From a virus (taxonomy: Duplodnaviria > Heunggongvirae > Uroviricota > Caudoviricetes): a stretch of DNA of 64,000 nucleotides. Position 1 is the stretch's first letter. Each line of letters opens with the position of its first letter. The position numbers and the translations under genes are program-made. Positions 3,433 to 58,411 of this stretch are shown here, one piece after another. The DNA lies in IMG/VR virus record IMGVR_UViG_3300028298_000002; one strand, 5' to 3'. The notes below the pieces were generated by a model. That model was not told the origin of the DNA. It made no database searches and saw only the letters and a program-made list of their open reading frames with translations.

Positions 3433-3437
3433 CTTAT

Positions 3438-5456: not shown

Positions 5457-5936
5457 TTATCTTATATCTAAATTTTGCTTTTTCAAATAATTGAAATACA
5501 TTTCTTCAAAATCTTGGTAATCATCCACCACAAATCTGGAAGAACCATTGAAATAAAGAATCAACACACCAACTACTTTAATTTGTTTTACTGGCGGCTC
5601 AAATTGAGGTCCGAAATCTGGCTGAAAAGAATCTTCTACTTCTACCGTAGCATTTTCATCTATAACAGCTGGAATGCTTGGCCCAAAACTTCTGCGTGGT
5701 CGTGGTCGTGCTTTCATCTTTTCCACTTCTTCCAAATAAGCTGGATATTTTTCTTCATCCAAAACATTTACTATAAGAGTTTTTTCAGAAATATCAACTA
5801 TGCTACGAAGATTGATAATGCACTTTTTGTAAGTGATTGTATCTTCTTTTTTCTCGAAATTATGTGATTGCAAAATATCAATCAATTTCGTTTGGTGATA
5901 GTCAGCTTCCGTTGGAAGTTCGATTATGTTTTTCAT
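5457..5936 (-). CDS. hypothetical protein (159 aa)
   Basis: ORF co-oriented in the array. Confidence 0.5.
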   Translation of the reverse strand: MKNIIELPTEADYHQTKLIDILQSHNFEKKEDTITYKKCIINLRSIVDISEKTLIVNVLDEEKYPAYLEEVEKMKARPRPRRSFGPSIPAVIDENATVEVEDSFQPDFGPQFEPPVKQIKVVGVLILYFNGSSRFVVDDYQDFEEMYFNYLKKQNLDIR

Positions 5937-6154
5937 AGTGTTTCTATTATTTTATCAGTTTCAAACTCATATTTTTTTCCTTTCACATCTTTATAGGTAT
6001 TCGCATCAATTATCCTTTGCATCTTGACAGAACTACCCCCATTTCCATTTGGTCTTGTATGTGTCATAAAAAAGGGTCTAGCTAGAGGCCAAATTTTTTC
6101 CCATTGGTCTAAAGTAATGGTACTATAATTTATTTTTTCTAAAATATCTTCCAT
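5933..6154 (-). CDS. hypothetical protein (73 aa)
   Basis: ORF with 4-nt overlaps to both neighbours. Confidence 0.4.
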   Translation of the reverse strand: MEDILEKINYSTITLDQWEKIWPLARPFFMTHTRPNGNGGSSVKMQRIIDANTYKDVKGKKYEFETDKIIETL

Positions 6155-6924
6155 TATTTTTTTGGATAGATATAAATTAACCCGCGTTTGATTTCAGTAC
6201 TTGTCGCATCACTATTGTAGTGGTAGTCATACCCATCTTCGCCATAAATATCATCGATGTAAGACTTTATGTTCACAAATGAAATATCTACTCCTTCATA
6301 ATGGTCAAAGCCTAATTTCGGTTCATCTGGAACAAGAAAATCGTGGATAGCAATTACTGGTTTTAGTCCTGACGCTTTGATAATTTTCAATTCATCAAAA
6401 ATTGGTAAGGTATTCCAATGGCTGTCGATGAAGATGAACACAGAAGATTCGTCTTCCCCAAGTGCTTCGGATGTTTTGATGCATTTATTCAACACTTCAG
6501 ATAATCGATCAACTGTACTGCCTAGATAAAATTCAATGTTAGTCAATCCAGTGCATCGTTCTATGGCAAATTCTAAAAATGTTTTGTTGATTTCAATGCC
6601 TAATACTCTTTCGAAATTTTCACCGAAGAATTTAGTTGTTCCGCCAACACATGTACCTAATTCTACGGCTGCTTTAACTTTAAACTTTTCTTTCAGCTTC
6701 AAAAATTCTTCAGCTACGAAATGATCGTTGTTGAACGGGCTCGACTGGTGTGGCATCAATACTGGTTCCGACACCGATAGCGATGGATCTGGAGTGTTTT
6801 GTGTTCCAGTTCTGGTATCAATCACTGGATTTATACCAGGCGATGCATTTACTTTCGAATTCGCTGGATCAGGAATTCTGTTTTCGATTCTGGGTTCGCC
6901 AGATGGGTTTCTTGGATCTTTCAT
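6154..6924 (-). CDS. class I SAM-dependent methyltransferase (TylF/MycF/CmcI-like O-methyltransferase fold) carrying N-terminal FDPRNPSGE-type tag
   Basis: N-terminus MKDPRNPSGEPRIENRIP, then a P/S/T/N-rich linker. SAM-binding glycine motif VELGTCVGGTTKFF and acidic IFIDSHWN typical of macrocin-O-MTase-like enzymes. Confidence 0.6.
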   Translation of the reverse strand: MKDPRNPSGEPRIENRIPDPANSKVNASPGINPVIDTRTGTQNTPDPSLSVSEPVLMPHQSSPFNNDHFVAEEFLKLKEKFKVKAAVELGTCVGGTTKFFGENFERVLGIEINKTFLEFAIERCTGLTNIEFYLGSTVDRLSEVLNKCIKTSEALGEDESSVFIFIDSHWNTLPIFDELKIIKASGLKPVIAIHDFLVPDEPKLGFDHYEGVDISFVNIKSYIDDIYGEDGYDYHYNSDATSTEIKRGLIYIYPKK

Positions 6925-6928
6925 ATTT

Positions 6929-6939
6929 TAGTTAGTTAG
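6929..6939 (-). promoter_or_regulatory. CTAACTAACTA start-proximal motif (coding-strand sense), 4 nt upstream of ATG of 6154..6924
   Basis: Plus strand reads tagttagttag immediately after the start-codon complement 'cat' at 6922-6924. Confidence 0.5.
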
Positions 6940-7068
6940 ATTATTAGTTTATGTCTTTTATCTTATCGTAACAGACCTTACATCCTGTTCCATTACAATT
7001 TGTGCATTCTTTTACTATTTTCGTATGCTTCAAATACTTTTTTTGAGTTGATTTACTATTAACGAGAA

Positions 7069-7275: not shown

Positions 7276-7667
7276 GAGGTTAGGTTTTTATACTCATCAA
7301 ACTTTATTCTATTTTCTTCATTATAATCACAAGGTTGTGGCTGCGTCTTAGCGAACACAAACCATTCTTTTGCTAAGTCTAATCGGTACATCGTTTCAGC
7401 TGCTTTATGTTCTGAACAAACTGGATGAAATGTTTTAATTGAAAAACTTTGAAGTTCACCTTCGCTCAAACTTTTTTCGCAGATGGAACATCTTTTCAAA
7501 TGGGCTGGATAGTCCGTTATTAAGCCCAATTCCATCTTTGCAATTTCTGGAATCATATAATGTGCAAACGAACGATGTTCTTCGCAAACCACTCCCCCAT
7601 CATAAGGGGTTTTTAAGTTCTGAGCTTTGCCCGTTAATTGCTTATCGCAAATACTACATTCTTCCAT
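7272..7667 (-). CDS. Cys-rich (zinc-binding) hypothetical protein
   Basis: ORF with CxxC...C...H and CxxC...C pairs (CSICDK...CEEH, CSICEK...CSEH). Confidence 0.5.
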   Translation of the reverse strand: MEECSICDKQLTGKAQNLKTPYDGGVVCEEHRSFAHYMIPEIAKMELGLITDYPAHLKRCSICEKSLSEGELQSFSIKTFHPVCSEHKAAETMYRLDLAKEWFVFAKTQPQPCDYNEENRIKFDEYKNLTS

Positions 7668-7870
7668 TATTTTACGTCTCTTAAAATGTCAATAATTTCC
7701 ATTGCCGTTTCTTTACTTAGTCGCATAGGGTGTTCACGACCATCACGATCGGTCAATAACATAATAGTTACTTTTTTTCCATCTTCGATTTCTGTATCGA
7801 AGTTCAGCCCAGTTAATGAATCTGGCGTTGTAGATTTTACAACTCTGTTATCTATTCTATTGTTCCCCAT
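7667..7870 (-). CDS. hypothetical protein (67 aa)
   Basis: ORF. Its start overlaps the neighbour's stop. Confidence 0.4.
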   Translation of the reverse strand: MGNNRIDNRVVKSTTPDSLTGLNFDTEIEDGKKVTIMLLTDRDGREHPMRLSKETAMEIIDILRDVK

Positions 7871-7906
7871 ATTATATACAATTACATTTAATGTCTATAC
7901 ACGAAT

Positions 7907-8245
7907 TTAATTTTCACTTCCAAATTCATTCCTGAAGGCTTCGTTGTCTTCATTCACCTTATTGTTAATTATTGAACCCGCAGCCATAGATGATTCTCTT
8001 AATCCTTCAAGGATTTCTGGACTAGAATCAACCGCTTTTTCCATTTCTGAAATTTTAGAAAGGGATTCAATATCAATATGTTTAGATAGTTCTTTTTCTA
8101 TCTTTATAAATATTGGAAGAAACATTTCGGCTACACCTTTATCTGCATTTTCGGCACTATGAATAGCTACATTCATCTTAGCTACCGCTGTAAGAATTTT
8201 AATTTCTTCGCCAGTTAATTCTAGTGTTATTGTTTTTGTTTCCAT
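7907..8245 (-). CDS. hypothetical acidic protein (112 aa)
   Basis: ORF. Confidence 0.45.
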   Translation of the reverse strand: METKTITLELTGEEIKILTAVAKMNVAIHSAENADKGVAEMFLPIFIKIEKELSKHIDIESLSKISEMEKAVDSSPEILEGLRESSMAAGSIINNKVNEDNEAFRNEFGSEN

Positions 8246-17098: not shown

Positions 17099-17332
17099 TT
17101 ATTTCTTTTTAAGGATTACTTGAATTTCATATTCGCCATCTTCCATATTGGCTTGTGTCAGCAGAATGCTGTCGATGTTGAGCTCTGCACCATTATCGTT
17201 TGTAATGGTATTGTTTGCTACGTCAATTGTCGCTGTCATTTCAAGCGTTGCGGATGTGTTTTTCATTTGGTTAGGGTTTTGGTTAAGGTCTGTATGTTCC
17301 TTGTACTTCACGCAGTTTGCGGTCTTCAGCAC
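17099..17332 (-). CDS. hypothetical protein (77 aa)
   Basis: ORF. Confidence 0.4.
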   Translation of the reverse strand: MLKTANCVKYKEHTDLNQNPNQMKNTSATLEMTATIDVANNTITNDNGAELNIDSILLTQANMEDGEYEIQVILKKK

Positions 17333-17621
17333 GTTTGTTAATCCACATTAATGCTTCATCAAGCTTAGTGATAACCATTGATGTTTCGCGGGAAGCCATT
17401 GGTCCTACATTTACAGATTCAAGATACTGCTTTGCTGTTTGGATAAGCGTTTCTGTAAACAATCCCTCTTGGCGTAGGACAGATGCATCTTCTTTGTTTC
17501 CTTTGCAGAAAACGATTTGAATACCAGCACCATCTTCCATTCCGTTGTCTGTTACTTTGTAGGTAGGAACATTGTATGTTGCCCCTTCAATCACTGTTTC
17601 TAATACTTTTGGATTTTTCAT
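17283..17621 (-). CDS. hypothetical protein (112 aa)
   Basis: ORF. CTAACTAACTA motif 4 nt upstream of the ATG (plus 17625-17635). Confidence 0.5.
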   Translation of the reverse strand: MKNPKVLETVIEGATYNVPTYKVTDNGMEDGAGIQIVFCKGNKEDASVLRQEGLFTETLIQTAKQYLESVNVGPMASRETSMVITKLDEALMWINKRAEDRKLREVQGTYRP

Positions 17622-23153: not shown

Positions 23154-23351
23154 TTATTTTTTACCTTTTTTTGCAAATATCGTTATTAATCCCATTGAAG
23201 CGAACAATAAAAAAAACGAAAGAAGAAATGTTCGTACTGACCACCAATTAAATTCGTTTCCAAAGACCAATTCTATCACCATCCATATTCCAGTAATAAA
23301 GATTGACATGTATGATATGAATATCATTGCTATTGCAAATGTTTTGTTCAT
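23154..23351 (-). CDS. small membrane protein
   Basis: Two TM helices. Confidence 0.4.
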   Translation of the reverse strand: MNKTFAIAMIFISYMSIFITGIWMVIELVFGNEFNWWSVRTFLLSFFLLFASMGLITIFAKKGKK

Positions 23352-24952
23352 AATACCATATAGCTAAAGAGGTGGGATATTACTTCAATCGTCCACCCAT
23401 TTCCTAAACACTGGTAAACCCTAGTTTCTGATATGATGTACTTTCCGTCTTTGAAGAAATAATCGTCTTTTACGGTCTGTAAACGGCAACATTCAATTGG
23501 TGTTAATCTGCGGATTCGGAAGTCGCTGGTGTATATCGACTTTCTCGAACTATCCAAATCTAGGGTTGGGCTAATGCCGTTAATATCGTAAACTCGATTC
23601 TGTTGATATGGTTGTCGTCCACTTTCTTTTGATGGATTTAATTGTCTAATCTCACGTACCAATATTCGTTCGTCAGCGCCTGTGCTGGTTAATGTTGGGG
23701 CTAACCCATCTTCATCGTAAACGCGGTTGGTCTTTTCGAATACGCTTTCCTTTTCAATGAATTCCATTACCTGTGCATCGAACTTGTCGGTAGTGATGGA
23801 TAGGATTTCTTTTAATTTCATCCAATATTCTGGACTAGGAATACTGAAACTTGCATCGGTTCTGAACCAATGTTCTATTTCGGTTTTCGGTATTCTAAGT
23901 TTTTCTGCAAGATTTCGGATGGTGATATTGCCTTTGTGTTCCTTCAGCAACGCTTGTAATCCCGGAATATCCACTTCGTGCTTTCTGACTGATACCATTT
24001 CTGGAATGTCGTGGGCAATAAGTCTAGGAATAGCATATAACCCCGTTTTAGCACCGCCACCGCCACCAAGTGCTGAAAGTGTCACACTTTTACCAGTGTC
24101 GGTATAAATTCGCCCAGCAACGCTATTATGCTCGTTATCGTAAATGTTTCCAATTTGGGTAAGTCCATCCTTTTTGCTGTCAGCGATGTATTGCTGATCA
24201 CGTCCACCACCTTTGAAATAACCCGCGTGAATAGTGTTGGATTTTTCGTTTTCGATAGAATCGTTGTTGTGTCTTTCAATTTTAGCAAGTGCTAAATCAC
24301 TAAGGAAATACTTTTCAGCAACATCTTTTTGAAGGATATCGCGAAGGAATATTTTTCTGTCCTTTGGCTGCGGGATGTAGCTTTCCATATCACCGAACAA
24401 TCCAGCTTCCGCCATTCCGATGTTGGTCCAGTACAATCTGCGTCTTGACTGAGCGCTCACTAGGGAACTATTGATTTCAATCGGGTTTACACCGATGGCT
24501 TTTGTAAGGATCTTTTCCCACTTTTCGCCCATCATCACGTTTTCCAAAAGGAAGTATCGTGGTTTTGTTTCCTTCAGTAATCGCATAAATTCCCAGAACA
24601 GATAACTTTGTCCTTCAAATTCGTACCCTTCGGACTTCAGCTGAAGATAATGTTCAAGCGTTAGGACTTCCTGTTCATCCTTCGTGGACATCCCTTTTCT
24701 TTTACCCGCGAAACTGAAGGATTGGCAGGGACTCCCTCCACAAAGCAAGTCGATTTGGGGCAAAGAATACCCATCTACATCGACAACGCTTCCCAATTGC
24801 CTAGTGTTTGGATAATTTGCCATCGTTGCCTGGATAGCATACTTGTCGATTTCGGAAGCAAAGTAGTTATCTACCTTGATTCCTAATCGGTCAAGTGCTT
24901 GTTGCCCACAAGAACAACCATCAAAAAGAGAAAGGACATTGAATTCTGGCAT
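23348..24952 (-). CDS. DNA (cytosine-5)-methyltransferase
   Basis: Motif I LFDGCSCG, motif IV GGSPCQSFSFAG, motif VI LLENV, C-terminal motif X region QCLGNGW. Confidence 0.9.
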   Translation of the reverse strand: MPEFNVLSLFDGCSCGQQALDRLGIKVDNYFASEIDKYAIQATMANYPNTRQLGSVVDVDGYSLPQIDLLCGGSPCQSFSFAGKRKGMSTKDEQEVLTLEHYLQLKSEGYEFEGQSYLFWEFMRLLKETKPRYFLLENVMMGEKWEKILTKAIGVNPIEINSSLVSAQSRRRLYWTNIGMAEAGLFGDMESYIPQPKDRKIFLRDILQKDVAEKYFLSDLALAKIERHNNDSIENEKSNTIHAGYFKGGGRDQQYIADSKKDGLTQIGNIYDNEHNSVAGRIYTDTGKSVTLSALGGGGGAKTGLYAIPRLIAHDIPEMVSVRKHEVDIPGLQALLKEHKGNITIRNLAEKLRIPKTEIEHWFRTDASFSIPSPEYWMKLKEILSITTDKFDAQVMEFIEKESVFEKTNRVYDEDGLAPTLTSTGADERILVREIRQLNPSKESGRQPYQQNRVYDINGISPTLDLDSSRKSIYTSDFRIRRLTPIECCRLQTVKDDYFFKDGKYIISETRVYQCLGNGWTIEVISHLFSYMVL

Positions 24953-30630: not shown

Positions 30631-30975
30631 TTAATTTTTTAAAGCTTTAATTAGTTCATCAAATTCATTTAAATTAATGTTTCCTTTTTGTTCATTTCTT
30701 TCTACCCAAGCATCTCTACATTTATTTGCTTCTTCACAGGTTAGGGCGAAAAGACCAAATGGTGTACTTAATGATTTAATGCTTTTTTCACTAATTGGAC
30801 GATCATTATCTGTGATTAAAGTCATCGATATTTCTTTTCTATACCATTCATAACTCAATATGAACTGAGCATATGGTCCACAAGGGCCATAGCCCATTTG
30901 GTGTTTCTTAACTCTGTTGGAATCAATGAATTTTAGCCACAAAAATATTGCTTGTTCTTTTGTAATTGCTTCCAT
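30631..30975 (-). CDS. hypothetical protein (114 aa)
   Basis: ORF. Confidence 0.5.
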   Translation of the reverse strand: MEAITKEQAIFLWLKFIDSNRVKKHQMGYGPCGPYAQFILSYEWYRKEISMTLITDNDRPISEKSIKSLSTPFGLFALTCEEANKCRDAWVERNEQKGNINLNEFDELIKALKN

Positions 30976-31211
30976 TACGGATTCAGTTGTTTATCAATGA
31001 AATCAATTAAGTCATTAATCGTTTTAATGCTTTCAGCATCTTCATCTGGGATAGATACTTTGAATTCGCTTTCAAAATCCATAATGGATTCAAGAACATC
31101 TAAGGAATCCATTCCAGTGTCTTCGATTTTTGTGTCTTTATCTGTTGTTACAACATCGTACTTGTTTTTTAGGATTTTTAATATTCCTACTTCGATTTCG
31201 TTTTTGTTCAT
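30975..31211 (-). CDS. acyl carrier protein-like (phosphopantetheine-attachment) protein, 78 aa
   Basis: EDTGMDSLDVLESIMDFESEFKVSIPDE matches the ACP DSL serine motif and helix II. Start ATG 31211-31209 overlaps the TGA stop of 31208..32749 (ATGA). The longer ORF to 31316 only adds a basic extension overlapping that gene. Confidence 0.7.
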   Translation of the reverse strand: MNKNEIEVGILKILKNKYDVVTTDKDTKIEDTGMDSLDVLESIMDFESEFKVSIPDEDAESIKTINDLIDFIDKQLNP

Positions 31212-32749
31212 TGGTTGAGTTTTTTTCTGATTTCTGTTAGTGTTGTTTGATTTTTTAGTACTCCGTTTTCGTAGATTACTTGAAGCAATCCTTGACTTTC
31301 TTCTTCGAAAGAACATTCTTCCTTACAAACGATTTTTCCTTCGTCTTCAGTAATCATTATCAATCCTTTTAATGATTTCTTAGTTCCATCATCCGTGATA
31401 GGTTCTTTGTAAATATTGTAGCCAGTTCCGTTAGCTTCAAACCAAGCTCCTTTTGCTGCAAACCCAAGTGTATCACGGGTATTCATCTGATAAGTGTAGC
31501 TTCCCACGCCTAATACGATATTGGTAGCTGCAAAGCCTTTTTGTTCTAATCGGTGGTAGATTTCAACTTGGCGATCAAGTGTGATGCTATCGCCATAAAT
31601 TGCACCGATATGGGAATCTAAAACTTTATATCCTTGTTCATTAATCGTTCCACCGAAGATATCCCAAAGTAATTCAATAACGCCTTTAGTTTCAGATTCA
31701 GTTACATTTTCTTTAAGTGTTTTGTATTTAGGAGGATTGCTAACTAAATTAGTAGGTTTTTCACCATTATATTTAAGAAAGGTATCTTTTCTACCACCTA
31801 AACCACAAATAATATCCACTGGATTTCCGCTGTCGGGACGGATAACCAATTTGCCATCACGCGACATAATTAATTCTTTGTTAGCAGGGAGGTATTCTGT
31901 AATTAACTTCCATAAGTCAAACGTATCTGATACAATTGAAAGAATACCCGTTGGAAACTCTTTCAGCCAATCAGCAATCATTTGCTGTTCCCCAACAGTA
32001 AATATTTTGGTGGTTGATACCGAATGTTCGGAAGCATTAACAGAATTTATGCATACTTCGTTTTCTGGTTCGTTGTAGAAATATCTTGCACCTGGAATAA
32101 CAATTAGTGCATCAGATCCACGATGGCTACTAGCATGTCCTAATCCACTTGATAACATATCCCAAGGGGATAATCCTCTAGCACTAAAATCGTGGCATAA
32201 GTAATCAATCAACCAGGCGTTTTGCGGATCCGTTTTCATAACCCATTCAACAGCATTTCTTCTGTATTGCAAAGCGATTGTTGCGGATGTCGATGGCTTC
32301 CAAGCTAAACTTGAAACAATGGTTTCCAAATACAAGGTCAGCCAAGCAAAGCCATCTACCGTATTGATAAATGTCATATGAGGGACGTTTGGCTGTGTTT
32401 CTATCCCTTCAGGTAAACTTTTAATGCGAATAGGTAAATAACCCAGCTTATGCAATTCAGCGAAGTGGTCCGCATTATATTCTTGCATTAGGTACATTCC
32501 CATATCCTTACCAAATTTCATTGCATCTTCCAAAGGAAGGCTGAAGAAGTTTTCAGCAAATTCGTCATGTAGCCAACGAACAACAATTTGTTGTCCAAAT
32601 GATACTATTTTTGAAACGCCTGTTGGAGCGTATTTGATGCTACGCGGAATCCACGTTCCATATAATTTTGTTGTACCTGGTGCCAACATTCTTTTGTGTG
32701 ATGTCTTATACCCATCGGTATAAAATAATGTGTTTGGTTTAAAGCTCAT
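31208..32749 (-). CDS. nicotinamide phosphoribosyltransferase family protein (NadV/NAMPT homolog; possibly Namat-type)
   Basis: 513 aa. N-terminus FYTDGYKTSHKRMLAPGTTKLYGTWIPRS (NAMPT-type TDSYKxxH). Length and overall pattern match phage NadV. Confidence 0.8.
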   Translation of the reverse strand: MSFKPNTLFYTDGYKTSHKRMLAPGTTKLYGTWIPRSIKYAPTGVSKIVSFGQQIVVRWLHDEFAENFFSLPLEDAMKFGKDMGMYLMQEYNADHFAELHKLGYLPIRIKSLPEGIETQPNVPHMTFINTVDGFAWLTLYLETIVSSLAWKPSTSATIALQYRRNAVEWVMKTDPQNAWLIDYLCHDFSARGLSPWDMLSSGLGHASSHRGSDALIVIPGARYFYNEPENEVCINSVNASEHSVSTTKIFTVGEQQMIADWLKEFPTGILSIVSDTFDLWKLITEYLPANKELIMSRDGKLVIRPDSGNPVDIICGLGGRKDTFLKYNGEKPTNLVSNPPKYKTLKENVTESETKGVIELLWDIFGGTINEQGYKVLDSHIGAIYGDSITLDRQVEIYHRLEQKGFAATNIVLGVGSYTYQMNTRDTLGFAAKGAWFEANGTGYNIYKEPITDDGTKKSLKGLIMITEDEGKIVCKEECSFEEESQGLLQVIYENGVLKNQTTLTEIRKKLNQ

Positions 32750-33236
32750 GTTTTTCTAAATATTTTATTGCGTTAATTAATACATTTTTATTATCTTTTA
32801 ATAATCCAAGAGCCCTGTTGCATGTGTTACATAATAACCCTCTTATTCGTCCAGTTTCGTGATCGTGGTCAACAGATAGTACTTTATTCCTGTAATATGT
32901 TTCTGGTTCATTACAAATAGCGCACAACCCATTTTGTGAAGCATTTAATTTGTCGTAATCTTTAATATCAAGATTGAAATTTCTTTTTAAATGAGCTCTT
33001 CGTGAAGACAAAACCCCTCTTTCTGAATTATAAAAAATCAATCTGTTAATTTTTTGAGAATCATTTTTATTTTTCTGCTTTTCAGGCGATTTCTTGTAAT
33101 AATCATTGTATTGTTCATTTCTACACGATTTACAACGAAATGTCAGTCCATCTTTGCTATATTTATCTTTAGCAAAATCTCCAAACGGTTTATTTTTTAA
33201 ACATTTTGTACACTTTTTTTTGTTCAAAAAGCTCAT
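32739..33236 (-). CDS. endonuclease VII (T4 gp49-like Holliday junction resolvase family)
   Basis: CAICNEPE...LSVDHDHETGRIRGLLCNTCNRALG. Confidence 0.8.
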   Translation of the reverse strand: MSFLNKKKCTKCLKNKPFGDFAKDKYSKDGLTFRCKSCRNEQYNDYYKKSPEKQKNKNDSQKINRLIFYNSERGVLSSRRAHLKRNFNLDIKDYDKLNASQNGLCAICNEPETYYRNKVLSVDHDHETGRIRGLLCNTCNRALGLLKDNKNVLINAIKYLEKHEL

Positions 33237-33256
33237 TTTTTTTTAGTTTTAATTAA

Positions 33257-33700
33257 TTATTCCATATTTTGTGTGGTAAGCTTTTGCGTTTGCTGGTATC
33301 CTCTGTATCGGTACATTGCTTCTTCCAATATATCCAATGCTTGTGTCAATCCACTTCTGTCGCAAAGGTTTATGTTGTAATAGATTTTTCCATTGTGTCC
33401 ATATGGAAGTTCAATTGGATTTTTATTTATTGAACTTATTGGAATTTTCAATTCTTCGCAATGTTTTTGTATTTCTTCAAAACGGCTAACATCACTAGCA
33501 GTGAATATCACGATATACGCCCCAGTGTAGTGAGCTTCTTGAAGCAGCTTAATTGTTCGTTCAACATCTTCTTTGTTATCTAAACCCCAATACTTAACTG
33601 TATCGTCCCAATCAGCACTGATGATGATTTTCCCGTGTTGTAGCCATTCTTGGTACAATCGATTGATGTACGTTTCTATTTTACTTAGTTCTGGTTTCAT
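33257..33700 (-). CDS. HAD-superfamily-like hydrolase (DxDxT)
   Basis: ISADWDDTVKYW motif I. Confidence 0.45.
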   Translation of the reverse strand: MKPELSKIETYINRLYQEWLQHGKIIISADWDDTVKYWGLDNKEDVERTIKLLQEAHYTGAYIVIFTASDVSRFEEIQKHCEELKIPISSINKNPIELPYGHNGKIYYNINLCDRSGLTQALDILEEAMYRYRGYQQTQKLTTQNME

Positions 33701-33703
33701 CGC

Positions 33704-34156
33704 TTATAATTCGTTTGAAAGTTCGGTGATTATTTTACCTAAAAGATTATCTCCCCAATCGAAAATGTTTTCTAAGGCATTTTCTTCTGCATATCCTATT
33801 CCCCATATTCTGTCGTATGGCGATGCTTCAACAAAGGTTTTCCCTTTGTGGCTCAATAATTCAGCTTTCATATCAGGATTTTGGTTGAATTTTTCCTTCA
33901 AACCTTTTTTTACTAAATCGTATCTTACTTCATTCCATACAATAGGATTAAAGTTCTGAACGGATCTGCCAAGTTCTTTTTGATCTCTTGGGTGCTTAGT
34001 AGCTAAAATCTTTTTTGCTGTATCAAAATCGTTAAATGTGATTGCTTTTTGATACATCATATATTGTTCGCCACAGCTGTATTTTATTCCATCAATCGTA
34101 AAGAATGATTCAATCCAGTTGCTAAATGTTCCGTTCCAAAAGAAGAAGTATTCCAT
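33704..34156 (-). CDS. NADAR (DUF1768/YbiA-like) domain protein
   Basis: FSNWIESFFTIDGIKYSCGEQYMMYQKA...LGRSVQNF...VEASPYDRIWGIGY matches the NADAR consensus. Confidence 0.8.
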   Translation of the reverse strand: MEYFFFWNGTFSNWIESFFTIDGIKYSCGEQYMMYQKAITFNDFDTAKKILATKHPRDQKELGRSVQNFNPIVWNEVRYDLVKKGLKEKFNQNPDMKAELLSHKGKTFVEASPYDRIWGIGYAEENALENIFDWGDNLLGKIITELSNEL

Positions 34157-34157
34157 A

Positions 34158-35018
34158 TTAAAAAATATTTAATTGTTTTACAAATGGTTCACACGCTGTT
34201 AATGTTTGATAGCTATTGGTACAATATACACCATCAAAAGATTGTTGTAATTCGCCAAAGCCTTTAGAAAAAATACCATGCGTTACCACTAAGTATATTT
34301 TATTTTTCCAGCCGTTAGCTTTCAGTTCTTTTGCAATATTGATAAAGGTTGCACCACCATCACAGATGTCGTCAATTATTACCGCATCTTTGTTTGAATT
34401 CCACAAATCGCCCATTGGAACAACGACTTTGCTTAGTTCCCCATTGGCACCTCTTGACTTGCTGCACGTAACAATGTCCCCTTTGAAAGAAACGTAATCA
34501 GCTACTTTGTATATTTTTTTCAAAGCCCCGCCATCAGGGGAAATAAATATCACGTCCTGGTCCTTGTTGTTTATTTGCGTCAAAGCCCACTTAACAAATT
34601 CACAATTATCTTTTTTAATGAAGTTGTTTAATCCCATTTCCAGACAATCTGAATGCGGATCGAGTATAGTGATAGAAGATATCTGCATTGCATTTATAAG
34701 AGGGCAAACAACTGTTTTAAGGTAATTGTTAGATCCTTCTTCAAACTTCCGGTCAGAACGAGCCCCAAGGATGTAAGGGGAATACAAATGTATCTGTTCA
34801 ACACCCAATCCTTTTAACGATGCTATGGCACACATAATAAGTTCCAAGTCCATAAAATTGTTCAATCGACTTTTGATTGTAACACTTCTATGTTCTATGG
34901 TGGGTGGATAAGACCAAGAATAAGGAGCTATTTTAACTTGTTGTTGTCCATCAGGGAATTTACTTATAGTGTAAACTATTTCTGATTGGCTTTCGTCTAT
35001 TAGGTTTAGTGTCTTCAT
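34158..35018 (-). CDS. ribose-phosphate pyrophosphokinase family protein (Prs homolog; possibly Adps-type)
   Basis: Prs motifs IHLYSPYILGARSDRK, LDPHSD, FISPDGGA, and PRPP loop AVIIDDICDGGATF. Confidence 0.75.
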   Translation of the reverse strand: MKTLNLIDESQSEIVYTISKFPDGQQQVKIAPYSWSYPPTIEHRSVTIKSRLNNFMDLELIMCAIASLKGLGVEQIHLYSPYILGARSDRKFEEGSNNYLKTVVCPLINAMQISSITILDPHSDCLEMGLNNFIKKDNCEFVKWALTQINNKDQDVIFISPDGGALKKIYKVADYVSFKGDIVTCSKSRGANGELSKVVVPMGDLWNSNKDAVIIDDICDGGATFINIAKELKANGWKNKIYLVVTHGIFSKGFGELQQSFDGVYCTNSYQTLTACEPFVKQLNIF

Positions 35019-36077: not shown

Positions 36078-38219
36078 TTAAAATTTGATTTTCACAATGC
36101 GTTTGAAAGTTCCGGATAGCTTGACAATTAATTCATCACGAACCGTAGCGTTGAAGCCAAGTCCAGACAATTGCTTATCTGTGGAAGCGATGTTGTTTGT
36201 AGTCCCCAAAACTTCCATCACCTTGCGATGATCAAGCAATTCAGAAATTAAATTTTCATTGTGGAAAGTTCTGATGCTTACTGGGGACTTGCATTTATCC
36301 AACATAAAGAAATAGTACTTGTTTCCTACTTTGTTTCCATTCCAATGGTTAGGCGATAAACACACCAAGTTCACTTTATGAAACTGATTTGTTTCAAGTC
36401 CGTAGATCTCTTTCGATGAAGCTGATTCAGGTAATAAATGCTTAATGGTAAATTCACCATTCTTCAATGTTACTTCAGCAACTTCAACTATTCCAGAAAC
36501 TCGTTTGTTGTATTCGTAAGAATAAACTTCACCACCGAATTCGATTTCTGCTTTAAACCCTTTTGAATTTCTATCGCTGAATTGATGCACCCACAATTTG
36601 TAAACACCATCTTTCATTTTAGATTGGTTATCCCAAGTAATGTTTTCAACTGCTAATCTTCCACTAGGCTGTGTATTATCAACGTCAAGCTGTCCAGACA
36701 TACTTGTTCTTACATTTCCACCTCTGTCTTTTCTGAATGGAGTAGAATAGCCAATTTCTGTTCTACTTGGTTCTGAAGCCCAAGCATCCAAATCCGAATT
36801 ATCATCCATTTTTTCATCGTTCCAGGCCAATCTGAAATTCAATACACCTTCCACATTTCCACCAGCATCTTTTACCGCTTGTTTAATTTCGGACTTACCG
36901 GCAAGGTTTCCGTTGAACGTCCAGCTGTAATTGTTTGTCCACTTGAAAATTGGTTTGCTATCAGGATTGTTTGCTGTTGTCAAACTAACCAAGTTTCCAT
37001 CTTGTGAATTTTTAAGATAAGCTTCGATTGCAGTACAACCTGGCAGGATATCAGTCATAAATTTTTCAATGCTAACTTCTTCGATACCATCAAATTCGCT
37101 TCTTTTGTGGCGTGTAGATGTTGCTTTTACCCCATCGAAAATTGAAACATCTTTAATTTCGCCTTTACCAACATTGCTGTGCAAGATTTCAGATACCTTG
37201 ATATCGTCAATCGTAGCAAAACGTCTGTCGAACGATTCAGCATAACCATTGCTTTCAACAAATTCTTTTGCTTCTGCAATCTGTTTCTTCGTGATAGGAG
37301 CTGTCGCTTTCATATAATTTGCTGGATCAACTCTTTTGTTCCAGGCTTGACATGCTTTATTTAATTCTTCGCCTTCTGACAATTCAGAACACAACACACC
37401 AATCAATTCATTTTTGAATTTTGCGAATGGCAAGTTGTAGCTGTTTACCCAGCACCAGCTGTCTCTTTGGTCTGCTGATAATTTATCGTATTCAGTTTTT
37501 AATGGAATTATTTGTTCGATTTTAAACAAGTGTGCATCACCATTTAGCAAAGAACCTTGAATAATAAGGTCTTTAACCAACTTTAAAGTGTCCAATGAGA
37601 TTTCTTCCATCGCACGTTGGAACACGTTTTTAGCATCTCTGTAAGTAGCCATAATGGATTCCACAGAATTTCCAGAAGCATCCACAAATTCTTTTGGCAA
37701 GAATAAGTGCATATGGTTAAACTCCCTGATTTCTTCTGGCTTTACAACACCAAATTTATCAGCTTCTTCTTTTGTGTATCTCTTATGATTAACAGATGTC
37801 CCCAATTGGAAAACAGAATTTGACTTGCTGCAAGATTCGTATGGCAGTTTATTTAATTCATTGAATGTTTCGAAAAATACTTCCGCCACTTTTGATGAAC
37901 GAATTGCTTCAGCTAGGGCTTTTGCAGTTTTTTGATATTCCAAATCACACACAACATCAAAAATGCTTACAATGTTGTTATCAGCATCTATCGTTACTAC
38001 GTTACCATATCTGCGAATGAAGTTTTTGCAGTGGTTACAATTGTGTGTTGAACTTTCCGGATCCCTGAAGATCGGGTTATTCGTTTTTGTGAACGATTTT
38101 AAGTATAGTCCCCAGATTTCATCACCAGTTAAACTAACTCTGAATAATTTACCAGTCTTGCACATCTCGTCAAGTTGTGCCTGGATTCTTTTGTTGAATT
38201 GTTTCATTTTTGTTTTCAA
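36078..38219 (-). CDS. large hypothetical protein (713 aa)
   Basis: Long ORF with no motif I can name. N-terminal Cys/His cluster (HNCNHCKNF). Confidence 0.6.
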   Translation of the reverse strand: MKTKMKQFNKRIQAQLDEMCKTGKLFRVSLTGDEIWGLYLKSFTKTNNPIFRDPESSTHNCNHCKNFIRRYGNVVTIDADNNIVSIFDVVCDLEYQKTAKALAEAIRSSKVAEVFFETFNELNKLPYESCSKSNSVFQLGTSVNHKRYTKEEADKFGVVKPEEIREFNHMHLFLPKEFVDASGNSVESIMATYRDAKNVFQRAMEEISLDTLKLVKDLIIQGSLLNGDAHLFKIEQIIPLKTEYDKLSADQRDSWCWVNSYNLPFAKFKNELIGVLCSELSEGEELNKACQAWNKRVDPANYMKATAPITKKQIAEAKEFVESNGYAESFDRRFATIDDIKVSEILHSNVGKGEIKDVSIFDGVKATSTRHKRSEFDGIEEVSIEKFMTDILPGCTAIEAYLKNSQDGNLVSLTTANNPDSKPIFKWTNNYSWTFNGNLAGKSEIKQAVKDAGGNVEGVLNFRLAWNDEKMDDNSDLDAWASEPSRTEIGYSTPFRKDRGGNVRTSMSGQLDVDNTQPSGRLAVENITWDNQSKMKDGVYKLWVHQFSDRNSKGFKAEIEFGGEVYSYEYNKRVSGIVEVAEVTLKNGEFTIKHLLPESASSKEIYGLETNQFHKVNLVCLSPNHWNGNKVGNKYYFFMLDKCKSPVSIRTFHNENLISELLDHRKVMEVLGTTNNIASTDKQLSGLGFNATVRDELIVKLSGTFKRIVKIKF

Positions 38220-53584: not shown

Positions 53585-54141
53585 AAAAAGTATTATCAGA
53601 ATCTGTTGAAAAAAGATTTCAAGCGGAAGCAACCATCAATTCACTAAGAAAAAAAATCTGCGGAATAGCTGAATATGAAACTTTAAAAAAGTATAAATCT
53701 GTCAATTTATTGCTTAAAGGAATGGAATTTGAATTAATTGGCGTTAAAGCGTCCTTTGATTTTTACGATATTGACATACCAAAAAAGGTTAATATACAAC
53801 TCGCTTACCTTTTTATTTCGAAAAGAAAAAGAGTTAAAGAAATTAAAGATTTTTATGCGAATAACAATCGCTTCCCTTTTACCAATAGTAAGAATCCATT
53901 TTTTGAAGAACGTCTGTATAGTGTAGATTTGGATAAGGTTTTAAATAAAGAAATTAACCTTAAAATTGATGGTAGCAAAAAATCACACGAAGAAAAGCTG
54001 GCAAAGGATAAAAAAATATTCGAAGAAAAAATAGCAAAAGAAGAAAAGCTATCCAAAGAAAAAAGAGAAAAAGATTTACAACAAAAAAAATCATTTGATT
54101 CTTTGGCAAAAACGATAAATAATTATAAAAATAATGCTTAA
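53575..54141 (+). CDS. hypothetical Lys/Glu-rich protein (188 aa)
   Basis: ORF. Confidence 0.5.
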   Translation: MDIKKVLSESVEKRFQAEATINSLRKKICGIAEYETLKKYKSVNLLLKGMEFELIGVKASFDFYDIDIPKKVNIQLAYLFISKRKRVKEIKDFYANNNRFPFTNSKNPFFEERLYSVDLDKVLNKEINLKIDGSKKSHEEKLAKDKKIFEEKIAKEEKLSKEKREKDLQQKKSFDSLAKTINNYKNNA

Positions 54142-55675
54142 AGTAGCCACAGTTTGCACTGGAATCGGTTCACCAGAATACGCCCTTAGAGAATTAGGAA
54201 TCCCGCACCAAATAGTTTTTGGCTGCGACATCGATCGCTTTGCTAGAGAAACTTACCTAGCCAACTTCAAGCCCGATATGATGTTTGAAGATATGACAAA
54301 GCCCGACATCCTAGACCACTATGCCGATTTGTTTCTTGGAGGAATTCCTTGTCAAAGTTTTTCACTAGCCGGTAAACGTCTTGGCGAATTAGATCCGCGT
54401 GGACTTTTATTTTACAATTTTTATGAATACGTCAAAGTTCAAAAACCGAAATATTTTATCATCGAAAATGTGAAAGGCTTACTTTCCGATCAAGACGGGA
54501 AAACATTTCAATCCTGGCTGGATTTACTTGGGCAATCAGTAAACAATCAGCACAATATGTTTACGCACGATGACAGCTTGATGTATAACCTACATTGGAA
54601 CGTCCTAAACACAAAGGATTTCGGACTACCTCAAAATAGAGAACGTGTTTTTATAATCGGCATCAGAAATGATCTTCCAAATAACTTTCGCTTCCCAGTC
54701 GGCTTTCCGCTTACCATTCGCCTAAAAGATATCCTAGAAACCAACGTAGATGAAAAATATTATCTAAGCGACAAAATGGTAGAATATATGAACAATCGTT
54801 CTGCCAATTTCAACAATGGAAAAATAAATTACAAGTATGGCGATGACATCGCTTCCACTATCACACGAAGCAGCAGCAGTTTAGATATCAGTGATAATAT
54901 TATTGTTGAAGAAAAGCAGAACCAAATGGATAGGCTACTTGAGCGCACTGGCGTTGATATTTCGGGAGTAACCGAACCAACTGCACTTGACGTTTACAAT
55001 AAAGTGCTTAAAACAGATGGAATATCACCTACACTTACCGAACCGCATCATAATAATTCACTAAGGCTTGTTGAACCCTTCTGCGTAGCGATGCGTGGAA
55101 GAAATCCAGAAAAGCCAAACGACAGAACATCTGGACTTAAAACAGAACAACGTCTTGAACCGAATTCACAAGGCATCACCAACACCATCACTTCCGTTCA
55201 AAAGGATAACTTAATTGTTGAACCAGCAATACTTACTCCTAAGAGGACCGAGTTTGGTAAAGAAACAAGGAAAAAATATGAAGCTGGGGAACTAAAACTG
55301 AACAGAAGCGAAATAACCAAACTTGAACCGAGAACAGATGGCATTTCTAACACCATTACGTCCGTTCAGAAAGATAATCTTTTGTTTGAACCTTATATCG
55401 TCCAAAAGCATCAAGACTGGCGACAAAAGGGCGATGATTTAAGGGAATTTCACGAACTAGCACCTACACTTCGCAGTAATATGGGCGACAACCATCCGCT
55501 TGTCGTTAGCCATAGAATCCGTAAGCTCACACCACGCGAATGTGGTAGATTGCAAGGATTTGCTGACGATTTTAAACAGCCCGTTTCTGACACCCAAGCG
55601 TTCAAGCAATTTGGAAATACCATAAGTACGCCAGTGATTAAAGCGATTTTAAAAAACTTATTAACCCCCAAGTAG
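54134..55675 (+). CDS. DNA (cytosine-5)-methyltransferase
   Basis: Motif I VCTGIGS, motif IV GGIPCQSFSLAGKRLG, motif VI IIENVKGL, C-terminal QFGNTISTPV. Confidence 0.9.
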   Translation: MLKVATVCTGIGSPEYALRELGIPHQIVFGCDIDRFARETYLANFKPDMMFEDMTKPDILDHYADLFLGGIPCQSFSLAGKRLGELDPRGLLFYNFYEYVKVQKPKYFIIENVKGLLSDQDGKTFQSWLDLLGQSVNNQHNMFTHDDSLMYNLHWNVLNTKDFGLPQNRERVFIIGIRNDLPNNFRFPVGFPLTIRLKDILETNVDEKYYLSDKMVEYMNNRSANFNNGKINYKYGDDIASTITRSSSSLDISDNIIVEEKQNQMDRLLERTGVDISGVTEPTALDVYNKVLKTDGISPTLTEPHHNNSLRLVEPFCVAMRGRNPEKPNDRTSGLKTEQRLEPNSQGITNTITSVQKDNLIVEPAILTPKRTEFGKETRKKYEAGELKLNRSEITKLEPRTDGISNTITSVQKDNLLFEPYIVQKHQDWRQKGDDLREFHELAPTLRSNMGDNHPLVVSHRIRKLTPRECGRLQGFADDFKQPVSDTQAFKQFGNTISTPVIKAILKNLLTPK

Positions 55676-55879: not shown

Positions 55880-58411
55880 ATGATTAAACTAAGACCATAT
55901 CAGCAAAAATTTGTGGATGAAATTCGAACGAAACTTTTCAAAAAAGAAAGGGTAATCGCATGTGCTGCTACGGGGTGTCATGCGGTAGGCACTAAAATAT
56001 TAATGTACAATGGATCTTTAAAAAATGTTGAAGATATATGTGTAGGAGATGCATTAATGGGCAACGATAGCACGAAAAGAACTGTGGATAGATTAATAAG
56101 AGGGAGGGAGTTGATGTATCAGATAACTCCAGTTAAGGGTGATTCATTTATTGTTAATGGAAATCATATTCTTTCTCTTAAAAGAACTACTAGCGATAAA
56201 AATTCAAGAGGCCGCGAACCAATAATGAATTTATCGGTTAATGATTACATTAAAACAAATAAAAATTTCAAGCATTTGTATAAATTATACAGAACCGGCA
56301 TTGATTTTAATTCATATAGCGAAAAATTAAGAACACACCCCTACTTTGTTGGATTATGGCTTGGAGATGGCACTATGGCAAATACCGCACTTACAAATCC
56401 AGATAAAGAAGTTCAGAGTTGGATGCTAAATGAATTTCAGGAGGACTGTAAAATTAATCACGAAGGGGTTATTGTTAAGGTTGTAAAGAACAAAGATAGG
56501 TGCGATACAATATTTTCGAATGTCCCAATTGGCGGAGGGAGGGGGAATCACAACAATTCATTGTTAAATTTTACTAGAACGCTTATTAGTAATAGTGAAA
56601 AAAGAATCCCTAAAGACTATTTAATAAATAGCAGAGAAGTAAGGTTGCAAGTATTAGCAGGGTTACTAGACACAGATGGGTATAGAGGACATGGAGGATA
56701 TGAAATAACAACTAAATATAATGGACTTTCGGATGATATATTATTCCTTGCTAGATCACTTGGATTAGCTGCTTATGTTAGTAAAAAAATAGGGAAAATA
56801 AAAAAACTTAATTTTATAGGAGAATATTTTCGAATTTCTATATCGGGCGATTGTTCAATAATCCCTTGTAAAATAGAAAGAAAAAAAGCGAGTGTTAGGC
56901 AACAAATTAAAAGTGTTCTTACAACTGGCTTTTCAATACAAGAATTACCAGAAGATAATTTTTACGGTTTTGAATTAGATGGAAATAATCTTTATTGTAT
57001 GGGGGATTTTACAATAACACATAATAGTGGTAAAACCAAATGCTTCATCGCAATCTCAAATATGGCTATTTCAAAAGGGAAGACAGTTTTGATAATGTCC
57101 GAAACTGCAAAAATATTTTCCCAAATATCTAAAGAAATAGAAAATTGTGTTAATATCGAAAGCAAAGTTAAAACGCTTGACGTAAAGCCAACTCACATCT
57201 ACGTTGCGATGTCCCAAACTCTAGCAAAGAGACCAAATATTATTTCTAAATTTTTAGAATTAGGCAAAGATCTTATAATCATAGCCGATGAATGCCATAT
57301 TGGGACCTTTACTAAATTAATAATGCAATTTCGTAATAGTTCATATATAATAGGCTTTTCAGCTACTCCAGATTTCAGATTTGCGAAGCACCTTCCACTT
57401 TTATACCACGATATTATTATTGGCGCTCAGCCGCAAGAACTAGTAGAAATGGGGTTTCTTGCACCATATTATCACTACGAAAGAAAGGTTGTTGATTTGA
57501 AAGGCTTAAAAAAAAGCAGCACTGGCGACTTTACAGAACAATCGCAGGAACAGGCTTTTGAAAAGGCTATTGTTTACGATGGAATATTTGAAGACATCGT
57601 AAAGTTTAAATTCAGGAAGTGTATGATCTTCACCGCGTCCATTCAACATGCAGAAGATGTTGGACAAAAAATGAGAAGTCGTGGATACAAAGTCGCTGTA
57701 TGCCATTCAAAGAATCCTGAATCTGATTTTGAATTATTTCAGTTTTTAAATCTCAATAGCGGAATTGATATTTGTATCAGTGTAGCATCGCTCACAAAAG
57801 GCTTTGACGCGCCTTCGGTGGACAATATAATTTTACTAAGAAGTACACTTTCGCTACCGCTATACCTTCAGATGATTGGTCGTGGATCCAGGATAAATGA
57901 ATTTACTGGGAAGACTAAATTCACAGTAATTGATTATGGTGGAAATGCTACAAGACATGGACTTTGGAACTTTGAAAGAGACTGGAGTTCTATGTGGTCT
58001 GGTAAACAAAAAACGAAAGGCGAAGGTATAGCTCCAGTGAAGACGTGTCCCAACAAATTACCTCCATTGAATCAACAATGTGGATATATGATGCATACAA
58101 ATGTTATGATTTGTCCTGATTGTGGATTTGTATTTGAAAAGAAAAAAGTTGATGCGAAAGAAACTGAGCTTGTTGAATTAAATACACGATACAATGCATT
58201 ACGGGGTAGAAAAATTTCTACGCTTACACCTAGCGAATTAGTGGACTATGCAAGAAGTACAAACAAGAAAAAATACGCTGAACGCATTGCAAAATCAAAA
58301 GGGATGGATTACCTACGTGAATATGGATTTAAAATGGGATATAAGGAAAGCTGGGTATATGCAACGCATACAGATGAAGTAGTAGAATTTTATGATGTAG
58401 AAATTAAATAA
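55880..58411 (+). CDS. SF2 DEAD/DEAH-box DNA helicase interrupted by a LAGLIDADG intein in the Walker A loop
   Basis: Extein: LRPYQQKFV...ACAATG | SGKTKCFIA restores GxGKT. Then IIADECHIG (DECH), GFSATPDF (motif III), QMIGRGSR (motif VI), and C-terminal Cys clusters. Confidence 0.85.
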   Translation: MIKLRPYQQKFVDEIRTKLFKKERVIACAATGCHAVGTKILMYNGSLKNVEDICVGDALMGNDSTKRTVDRLIRGRELMYQITPVKGDSFIVNGNHILSLKRTTSDKNSRGREPIMNLSVNDYIKTNKNFKHLYKLYRTGIDFNSYSEKLRTHPYFVGLWLGDGTMANTALTNPDKEVQSWMLNEFQEDCKINHEGVIVKVVKNKDRCDTIFSNVPIGGGRGNHNNSLLNFTRTLISNSEKRIPKDYLINSREVRLQVLAGLLDTDGYRGHGGYEITTKYNGLSDDILFLARSLGLAAYVSKKIGKIKKLNFIGEYFRISISGDCSIIPCKIERKKASVRQQIKSVLTTGFSIQELPEDNFYGFELDGNNLYCMGDFTITHNSGKTKCFIAISNMAISKGKTVLIMSETAKIFSQISKEIENCVNIESKVKTLDVKPTHIYVAMSQTLAKRPNIISKFLELGKDLIIIADECHIGTFTKLIMQFRNSSYIIGFSATPDFRFAKHLPLLYHDIIIGAQPQELVEMGFLAPYYHYERKVVDLKGLKKSSTGDFTEQSQEQAFEKAIVYDGIFEDIVKFKFRKCMIFTASIQHAEDVGQKMRSRGYKVAVCHSKNPESDFELFQFLNLNSGIDICISVASLTKGFDAPSVDNIILLRSTLSLPLYLQMIGRGSRINEFTGKTKFTVIDYGGNATRHGLWNFERDWSSMWSGKQKTKGEGIAPVKTCPNKLPPLNQQCGYMMHTNVMICPDCGFVFEKKKVDAKETELVELNTRYNALRGRKISTLTPSELVDYARSTNKKKYAERIAKSKGMDYLREYGFKMGYKESWVYATHTDEVVEFYDVEIK
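55976..57025 (+). mobile_element. intein (350 aa) with LAGLIDADG homing endonuclease domain
   Basis: Begins CHAVGTKIL immediately after ACAATG. Ends ...FTITHN, followed by extein Ser. Two dodecapeptide motifs FVGLWLGDGTMAN and LAGLLDTDGYRGHGG. Confidence 0.8.

Follow-up and report, generated by a model that had tools for sequence, protein, structure and literature searches.

The closest described systems to the block of six genes analysed here, at positions 30975-35018 of a 64,000-nt stretch of phage DNA (Caudoviricetes; IMG/VR record IMGVR_UViG_3300028298_000002; the whole stretch is hereafter the window), are phage pathways that restore NAD+. NARP1, found in roughly 4% of the phages sequenced (Osterman et al., bioRxiv 10.1101/2024.02.11.579819) and known from Bas63, SPbetaL1 and Fado (same preprint; PMC12774641), combines a Prs-family protein, Adps, with an NAPRTase-family protein, Namat; the two genes are co-directional and close together, in a phage early-gene region beside other anti-defence genes. 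Accessory enzymes that feed ADP-ribose (ADPR) to NARP1 have been described (bioRxiv 10.64898/2026.01.28.702374; 10.64898/2026.05.28.727677). In NARP1-AP of Vibrio phage Gary, a gene between Adps and Namat encodes the Macro phosphatase Adpp, which turns ADPR-1''-phosphate into ADPR and overcomes aRES (bioRxiv 10.64898/2026.01.28.702374). In mycobacteriophage DyoEdafos, RyDEP, a RyR-domain O-glycosidase acting on cyclic ADPR signals, is encoded beside NARP1 and its ADPR product is fed to Adps and Namat (bioRxiv 10.64898/2026.05.28.727677). NARP2 of Vibrio phage KVP40 reaches the same end, restored NAD+, with a homologous NAPRTase-family enzyme, Nampt, but has no Prs-like partner and needs an adenylyltransferase (Nmnat, or NMNAT) for nicotinamide mononucleotide (NMN). 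In the published survey, a clade of homologues from Adps-less phages, with Nampt of the KVP40 type, is distinct from the NARP1 Namats, 94% of its phages carry Nmnat, and no phage carried both pathways (bioRxiv 10.1101/2024.02.11.579819).

An earlier note on the window had proposed that its Prs and NAMPT homologues may be Adps and Namat, rather than Prs and a NadV-type Nampt. Our analysis comes down on the same side. We estimate a probability of roughly 80% for an explanation in which the block would be a NARP1 operon with a HAD phosphatase as a third gene, an independent NADAR gene, a selfish endonuclease gene and a neighbouring gene for an ACP-like protein. The core pair appears from its sequence to be a new, divergent member of the known NARP1 system, and a HAD phosphatase gene is a recurrent third gene between or beside Adps and Namat. 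The six genes, in their order along the minus strand, are as follows.

34158..35018, minus strand: Adps-like (Prs-family) protein of 286 aa, candidate ADP-ribose pyrophosphokinase (Pfam, TIGR01251, motifs, synteny)
33704..34156, minus strand: NADAR-domain protein of 150 aa, probable ADP-ribosyl N-glycohydrolase (Pfam NADAR, TIGR02464, 8BAU)
33257..33700, minus strand: predicted small cap-less HAD-fold phosphatase of 147 aa, from a NARP1-associated family
32739..33236, minus strand: endonuclease VII-family protein of 165 aa with a zinc finger at its N terminus, probable free-standing homing endonuclease whose gene is inserted in the operon
31208..32749, minus strand: Namat-like protein of 513 aa, candidate nicotinamide ADP-ribose transferase (PDB matches, clamp motif, tree)
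30975..31211, minus strand: ACP-like protein of 78 aa with a DSL serine motif (Pfam PP-binding)

All six open reading frames (ORFs) are co-directional and tightly packed, with the sizes, coordinates and strand first reported for them, and the same six products come out of independent gene calls made on this phage's ENA and Logan assemblies. The motifs quoted in the earlier note are likewise present: YSPYILGARSDRK, LDPHSD and IIDDICDGGATF in the Prs-like protein and TDGYKTSHK in the NAMPT-like protein. Spacing within the block ranges from an 11-nt overlap, between the endonuclease VII-like gene and the Namat start, to a 20-nt gap. GC content is ~35%. Megablast of the block against phage records returned a single 260-bp match, which makes this a new phage at the level of DNA. 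Promoter- and terminator-like sites in the block showed no enrichment over shuffled sequence, which leaves the operon boundaries undefined.

Like the described NARP1 loci, the window has the same two families encoded co-directionally and close together in an early-gene region beside other anti-defence genes, with Namat-type contacts, a clamp of Namat type but for one position, Adps-type divergence from canonical Prs, and no NMNAT found in the window or ~16 kb of flanks. It differs from them in that three inserted genes part the two enzymes.

The NAMPT-like protein matches Pfam NAPRTase (3.5e-29). Its closest PDB sequences by phmmer are 9W5X and 9W5W (376 bits), which are SPbetaL1 Namat structures according to their depositors (PMC12774641); human, bacterial and other Nampts score ~150-160 bits. 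Identity is 41% to SPbetaL1 Namat versus 24-28% to the KVP40-like and Aeh1 NadV proteins. Across phage records, tblastn scores step from at least ~320 bits for Namat-type to at most ~240 bits for Nampt-type proteins. For further comparison we used NARP1-type references from SPbetaL1, Barry, ICP1, Acquire49, HJ01 and Team1, and NARP2-type references from a KVP40-like schizoT4 phage, Aeh1, Matisse and DSS3P8, the last of which has its Nampt gene next to a NadM. A clamp helix motif specific to Namat, GSX-phi-X-phi-X-phi-TRD, and a variable clamp loop have been defined (PMC12774641). The window protein reads GSYTYQMNTRD at the clamp motif (SCH), with Tyr418 at position 3 and Met422 at position 7. 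In an alignment of 25 homologues, GS[FY][TS][YL][QG] occurs in every Adps-linked protein, and all four NARP2-type Nampts (KVP40-like R10Z, Aeh1, Matisse, DSS3P8) have GGGLLQ, as GGGLLQxxxRD, where the window protein has GSYTYQ.

When the NAD+ contacts of SPbetaL1 Namat were mapped onto the window protein, the catalytic-core residues were found to be all kept (F188, R191, D213, A239, R304, D306, G386, D387, R425, D426), and the discriminating positions S189, S388, S417, Y418 and T424 are in the Namat state. The SCL loop, PRSIK-YAPT, is longer than the SCL loops of Nampts; its Lys39 aligns with SPbetaL1 Arg40 and is followed by Tyr40, as in Bas63-like Barry (K-W). The earlier note had called for phylogenetic placement of this protein. 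In a neighbour-joining tree it groups with uncultured-phage proteins and those of Leptolyngbya phage Lbo-JY46 and Tenacibaculum phage PTm1, and this group nests inside the Adps-linked one. Two further models, NF006629 and phrog_448, were rejected as discriminators, since both Namats and Nampts pass them. Assignment of the protein to the Namat type, as a candidate nicotinamide ADP-ribose transferase, is thus supported by its sequence relatives, motif, residues and tree position.

The Prs-like protein was described in the earlier note as divergent from housekeeping Prs, and this is borne out. Its matches to Pfam Pribosyl_synth (8e-7) and Pribosyltran (4e-6) are barely over the curated cut-offs, it falls several-fold below the cut-offs of all NCBIfam Prs equivalogs, and on the NCBIfam Prs model TIGR01251 it scores 90.5 bits, under the cut-off of 113. 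Validated Adps proteins score similarly on this model (SPbetaL1 106, Felixounavirus Barry 124, ICP1 98 bits), unlike E. coli Prs (423 bits); in HMM scoring on this model, a kind of check proposed earlier, the protein thus behaves like Adps. The motifs DPHS and DDICDGGxTF are common to the window protein and the Adps of ICP1, Barry, HJ01 and Acquire49, where E. coli Prs reads DLHA and DDMIDTGGT. By blastp the window protein scores 72-98 bits against five of six Adps references and 56 bits against E. coli Prs.

Gene context agrees with the scores. Namat adjoins 97% of Adps-clade genes in the published survey (Osterman et al., bioRxiv 10.1101/2024.02.11.579819). In the window the Namat homologue is four genes from the Adps-like gene. 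Sixteen IMG/VR Namat relatives were compared; two are truncated upstream, and each of the other 14 has an Adps-like gene at most 6 kb upstream of Namat. An Adps-like identity, as a candidate ADP-ribose pyrophosphokinase, is therefore supported for the Prs-like protein by homology and synteny.

The earlier observation that no NMNAT is visible was confirmed by three kinds of search in the window. No CTP_transf_like or Nudix match was found among its ~75 further ORFs, a phage NadM used in tblastn against it gave a best E of 2, and HxGH is absent from all its open frames of at least 100 aa. A search beyond the window, likewise proposed before, found no NMNAT in the flanks added by public contigs, ~10 kb to the right and ~6 kb to the left. 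Closeness to Namat, the clamp motif, the residues, the tree, the Adps-like scores, synteny and the missing NMNAT together point to Adps and Namat rather than Prs and NadV.

On this assignment the pair would act after a host defence has cleaved NAD+ to ADPR and nicotinamide. By homology, Adps would transfer pyrophosphate from ATP to the free ribose of ADPR, giving ADPR-PP, and Namat would join nicotinamide to ADPR-PP to give NAD+ directly, without an NMN adenylyltransferase. The HAD phosphatase would strip phosphate from phosphorylated ADPR species that core NARP1 is unable to use, and so pass ADPR into the pathway.

The HAD-like gene was listed in the earlier note, and is indeed present; its recurrent embedding in NARP1 was not singled out there. 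Its 147-aa product has no Pfam or NCBIfam match and is part of a metagenomic protein family with over 200 members. A profile of this family found nothing significant in the PDB, and the identification came from fold comparison. The AlphaFold model (pLDDT 94) has a Rossmannoid HAD fold, and its Foldseek matches include a phage D-arabinose 1,5-diphosphate phosphatase. HAD catalytic motifs I-IV are in place: among 48 homologues D30-x-D32-x-T34, K105 and D114 are invariant and T67 is nearly so. From the catalytic residues and the predicted fold, the protein is taken to be a minimal HAD phosphatase.

Linkage of this family to NARP1 was seen in several data sets. Of the 16 IMG/VR Namat relatives, 5 have the HAD gene between Adps and Namat, and in three unrelated contigs of other sources it is directly upstream of an NAPRTase-family gene. 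In a profile-driven IMG/VR scan, 53 of 80 viral loci had a NARP1 gene within 5 kb of the HAD homologue; after dereplication at 95, 80 and 60% identity the linkage was 38/57, 35/46 and 14/18 clusters. NADAR, run as a control by the same method, was linked at only 2 of 23 loci (Fisher p = 7e-7 against the HAD linkage). The typical order is Adps-HAD-Namat, in which the HAD gene is usually 13-120 nt from Adps and 16-90 nt from Namat. In all linked loci it was a Namat-type query that the adjacent NAPRTase-family gene matched best, and in none a Nampt-type query. The cultured crAss-like Bacteroides phage DAC15 also retains the trio, ordered differently, with Namat as gp036, the HAD-like protein as gp037 (hhalign probability 99.3%) and Adps as gp038. 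No paper joining the terms NARP1 and HAD came up in a literature search, and the aRES preprint makes no mention of HAD or NADAR. The NARP1-embedded HAD phosphatase family goes beyond the literature consulted, in which it is not described as part of the pathway.

Tenacibaculum phage PTm1 has a degenerate HAD-like protein, ORF-129 (locus L002, 7605-7979; hhalign probability 98.4%), in which the nucleophile Asp is replaced by Glu and the motif III Lys is lost. Its gene is directly upstream of a Namat 62% identical to that of the window, with no Adps detected within 8 kb.

Several observations weigh against a NARP1 operon with a HAD third gene, beginning with its basis, which is homology and gene context. 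The two proteins here are candidates whose identity to the validated NARP1 enzymes is ~30% for Adps and ~41% for Namat. For the Adps-like protein, the sixth reference, from Staphylococcus phage Team1, scores 44 bits by blastp, below E. coli Prs; phrog_619 gives the window protein (192 bits) and E. coli Prs (193 bits) similar scores, for which it was rejected as an Adps/Prs discriminator; and the canonical Prs outgroup was a single sequence, that of E. coli, so that membership of the Adps clade is tentative. In the Namat-like protein, Met422 sits where SPbetaL1 has the adenine-contacting Tyr396, replacing the second adenine-stacking aromatic residue, so that motif position 7 has Met instead of Tyr or Phe. 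The same Met is found in three close relatives (L010, L011, L013), and among Adps-linked proteins that of HJ01 has Cys and that of Acquire49 has His there. Namat enzymes retain PRPP-dependent NMN synthesis in vitro (PRPP, phosphoribosyl pyrophosphate), being about half as active with PRPP as human Nampt, so the window protein may have some classical activity. The DNA inspected for an NMNAT totals ~80 kb, and the genome is probably larger. As to the HAD family, its distant members (33-40% identity; L106 and L119-L140 from IMG/VR) are not NARP1-linked. They lie with genes for RNA ligase, a HAD_SAK_2 protein and a calcineurin-like metallophosphoesterase, an RNA-repair neighbourhood, which is also a setting where ADPR phosphates arise (Iyer et al. 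2022). Finally, the NARP1 clusters of L019/L096, L083, L084, L086 and L088 contain both a Macro Adpp-like gene and a HAD gene.

This last observation bears on what the HAD phosphatase would act upon. The enzyme occupies a position equivalent to that of Macro Adpp in NARP1-AP, a layout (Adps-Macro-Namat) that we confirmed in a thalassavirus, and the two systems likely share a logic, in which modified ADPR is turned into a NARP1 substrate. What differs is the fold of the phosphatase, HAD here in place of a Macro domain: no Macro match was found among the block proteins with Pfam, and two Adpp-like Macro proteins had no tblastn match in the window. Candidate substrates would be ADPR-1''-phosphate, another ribose-phosphate isomer derived from ADPR-cyclic-phosphate, which is a spontaneous decay product of ADPR-PP, and 2'-phospho-ADPR from NADP+.

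Among the alternatives, one survives better than the others: the HAD enzyme could be a non-homologous replacement of Macro Adpp that acts on ADPR-1''-phosphate from aRES-type defences, making this a HAD version of NARP1-AP. The shared position speaks for such a replacement; simple equivalence predicted mutual exclusion of the two phosphatases, and both kinds are found in one operon in related contigs. We therefore downgraded it and now think it unlikely. Since HAD and Macro genes co-occur in the same operons, the HAD substrate probably differs from that of Macro Adpp. A more novel reading, tentative and at less than even odds, is that the ~140-residue HAD phosphatases would be a dedicated third NARP1 enzyme of crAss-like, Bacteroidota-type and aquatic phages, salvaging phospho-ADPR that neither core NARP1 nor Adpp can use; the candidates here are 2'-phospho-ADPR, from NADP+ cleavage, or a 2''/3''-phosphate from ADPR-cyclic-phosphate.

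Sister NARP1 clusters carry further recurrent inserts, often alongside the HAD gene, namely Macro (Adpp-like), DUF1937 and Nuc_deoxyri_tr2 (nucleoside deoxyribosyltransferase-like) genes, at the following places.

L011: sister-cluster inserts at 3331-3846 and 7437-7946
L019: sister-cluster insert at 5844-6359
L050: sister-cluster insert at 6466-6957
L083-L089: further sister-cluster inserts

Among these phages, the NARP1 operon forms a variable cassette of enzymes that process ADPR.

The remaining genes of the block have a different standing. The NADAR protein matches Pfam NADAR (2e-45) and TIGR02464 (148 bits, cut-off 73.7), and its best solved relative is 8BAU (69 bits). NADAR genes beside phage NadV had been noted previously, and the L011 lineage and L050, too, have a NADAR gene between Adps and Namat. 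The earlier suggestion that it extends the pathway did not hold up: only 2 of 23 viral loci with NADAR relatives are near NARP1, on which count a dedicated NARP1 role was rejected, and an independent anti-DarT role is known. Phage NADARs are anti-DarTG1 ADP-ribosyl-guanine glycohydrolases, and all tested NADAR subtypes are active in vitro (PMC11257639). Like AdfN and other phage NADARs (PMC11257639), the window protein is a stand-alone NADAR domain of similar size; it differs in belonging to another branch, with TIGR02464 and 8BAU as its best models, and its glycohydrolase role is predicted. Most likely it would act alone as an ADP-ribosyl-guanine glycohydrolase against DarT-type toxins, releasing ADPR as a by-product. 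It would then be an independent counter-defence gene whose released ADPR could incidentally feed NARP1. In this it could contribute much as RyDEP does, although it is an N-glycohydrolase unrelated to that O-glycosidase and is not consistently NARP1-linked.

The endonuclease VII-like protein matches Pfam Endonuclease_7 (1e-22) and phrog_2633 (1e-35). Copies 64% identical to it lie directly upstream of Namat in Leptolyngbya phage Lbo-JY46 (L001, 5523-5999) and in L022 (7524-7961), and a further match occurs in L087, where the HAD-Namat gap is 620 nt; the gene is missing from most relatives. Its patchy occurrence at the same site fits a free-standing homing endonuclease and suggests a selfish insertion that targets this site.

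The ACP-like protein matches Pfam PP-binding (9e-10) and has a DSLD motif. NCBIfam ACP models give it 57-61 bits, all under their cut-offs (e.g. 60.6 versus 92), and its best PDB match is a bacterial ACP (52 bits); a carrier protein with a DSL serine is plausible on these matches. Its membership of the NARP1 module is doubtful. By phmmer over the fetched loci, homologues lie near NARP1 in only two other lineages, L016 and L098, and the viral-contig scan returned no relatives, so the proposal that ACP extends the pathway was not sustained. Its translational coupling to the NAMPT-like gene, also proposed before, stands in part. The ATGA overlap of the NAMPT-like stop with the ACP start, at 31211-31208, is real, but the gene after ACP overlaps ACP as well (TAATG), and such overlaps run through the whole array; coupling is therefore not peculiar to ACP and says little about function.

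These findings also define a second alternative, that all the inserted and following genes are cargo of a crowded early-gene array with no tie to NAD+ reconstitution; the NADAR would be anti-DarT, the HAD enzyme a phosphatase of nucleotides or RNA ends, and the endonuclease a homing one, with an ACP beside them. In its favour, NADAR relatives lie elsewhere in 21 of 23 loci and phage NADARs counter DarTG1 alone, ACP is sporadic, and the endonuclease is patchy and mobile-looking. The start-stop overlaps throughout the array, the promoter and terminator scans at shuffle level, and the RNA ligase, HAD_SAK_2 and metallophosphoesterase neighbours of distant HAD members can be read in the same way. 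Against it stands the HAD gene: its linkage to NARP1 (53/80 loci, and 14/18 clusters at 60% identity, against 2/23 for NADAR), its spacing of tens of nucleotides to both enzymes and the retention of the trio in another order in DAC15 are stronger and more exact than chance would give, and unrelated cargo is improbable as an account of the whole block.

Classical nicotinamide salvage (NARP2-like), in which the Prs homologue would make PRPP, the NAMPT homologue NMN, and a phage NMNAT elsewhere or host NadR/NadD would finish NAD+, is very improbable: the Prs and NAPRTase family ties of the two proteins, the passing of the NF006629 cut-off, the half-strength PRPP activity of Namat in vitro and the probably larger genome would allow it, but NF006629 fails to separate Namat from Nampt, the protein is far closer to Namat and has the Namat motif and residues rather than the GGGLLQ state of Nampt, no NMNAT was found in the window and its ~16 kb of flanks, and in the published survey the Adps-less clade, 94% with Nmnat, is distinct from NARP1 Namats and no phage has both pathways.

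Elsewhere in the window there are other genes that may relate to NAD-based immunity. A 192-aa protein at 3895-4473 (minus strand) has a C-terminal match to PF11195 (1.9e-22), is 37% identical to a KVP40 DUF2829 protein and is Tad2-like; from these matches it is likely a Thoeris signal sponge, and its gene shares an early-gene arm with the NARP1 operon. A 112-aa protein at 17283-17621 (minus strand) gives a partial match to the Acb2/Tad1 hairpin PF24729 (25.5 bits, gathering score 27) and may be a second cyclic-nucleotide sponge. Tad2-like and Acb2/Tad1-like genes fit a phage pressed by NAD-based immunity.

Upstream of the Adps-like gene, at a distance of about 1 kb and beyond three small genes, lies the gene for a 713-aa protein (36078-38219, minus strand; phrog_1735, 5e-219; DUF8224), a homologue of which is found near NARP1 and HAD in L131 and L134. 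At 55880-58411 (plus strand), an 843-aa ResIII/Helicase_C helicase carries Hom_end_hint and Hom_end matches, an intein with a homing endonuclease interrupting the helicase. Two C5 cytosine DNA methyltransferases are encoded, at 23348-24952 (minus strand, 534 aa) and 54134-55675 (plus strand, 513 aa), and a thymidylate synthase family match is found elsewhere in the plus-strand arm. The methyltransferases and this match suggest DNA modification as a further counter-defence. In the public contig of the same phage, ~4.5 kb past the left end of the window, a 1502-aa AAA_34/Helicase_C_4 protein is encoded (L144, 11227-15735).

For annotation, the distinctions between Adps and Prs and between Namat and Nampt are missed by PHROGs 619 and 448 and NCBIfam NF006629, and are made by the clamp motif and TIGR01251 scores. 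Few bacterial anti-phage strategies are commoner than NAD+ depletion, and the main route known by which phages undo it is NARP1; the core pair adds a NARP1 member from poorly sampled, low-GC uncultured phages. The presence of a conserved HAD phosphatase in NARP1 operons, even in cultured DAC15, suggests a further layer of the arms race, parallel to the aRES-countering Macro phosphatase. If the dedicated-enzyme reading is true, the hosts would have an undescribed defence chemistry, or the pathway an undescribed leak, and the HAD, Macro, NADAR, DUF1937 and deoxyribosyltransferase-like genes of sister operons would jointly act as a variable funnel from many ADPR derivatives to the NARP1 substrate. 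The HAD gene is a testable candidate for learning which modified ADPR species matter in gut and aquatic Bacteroidota.

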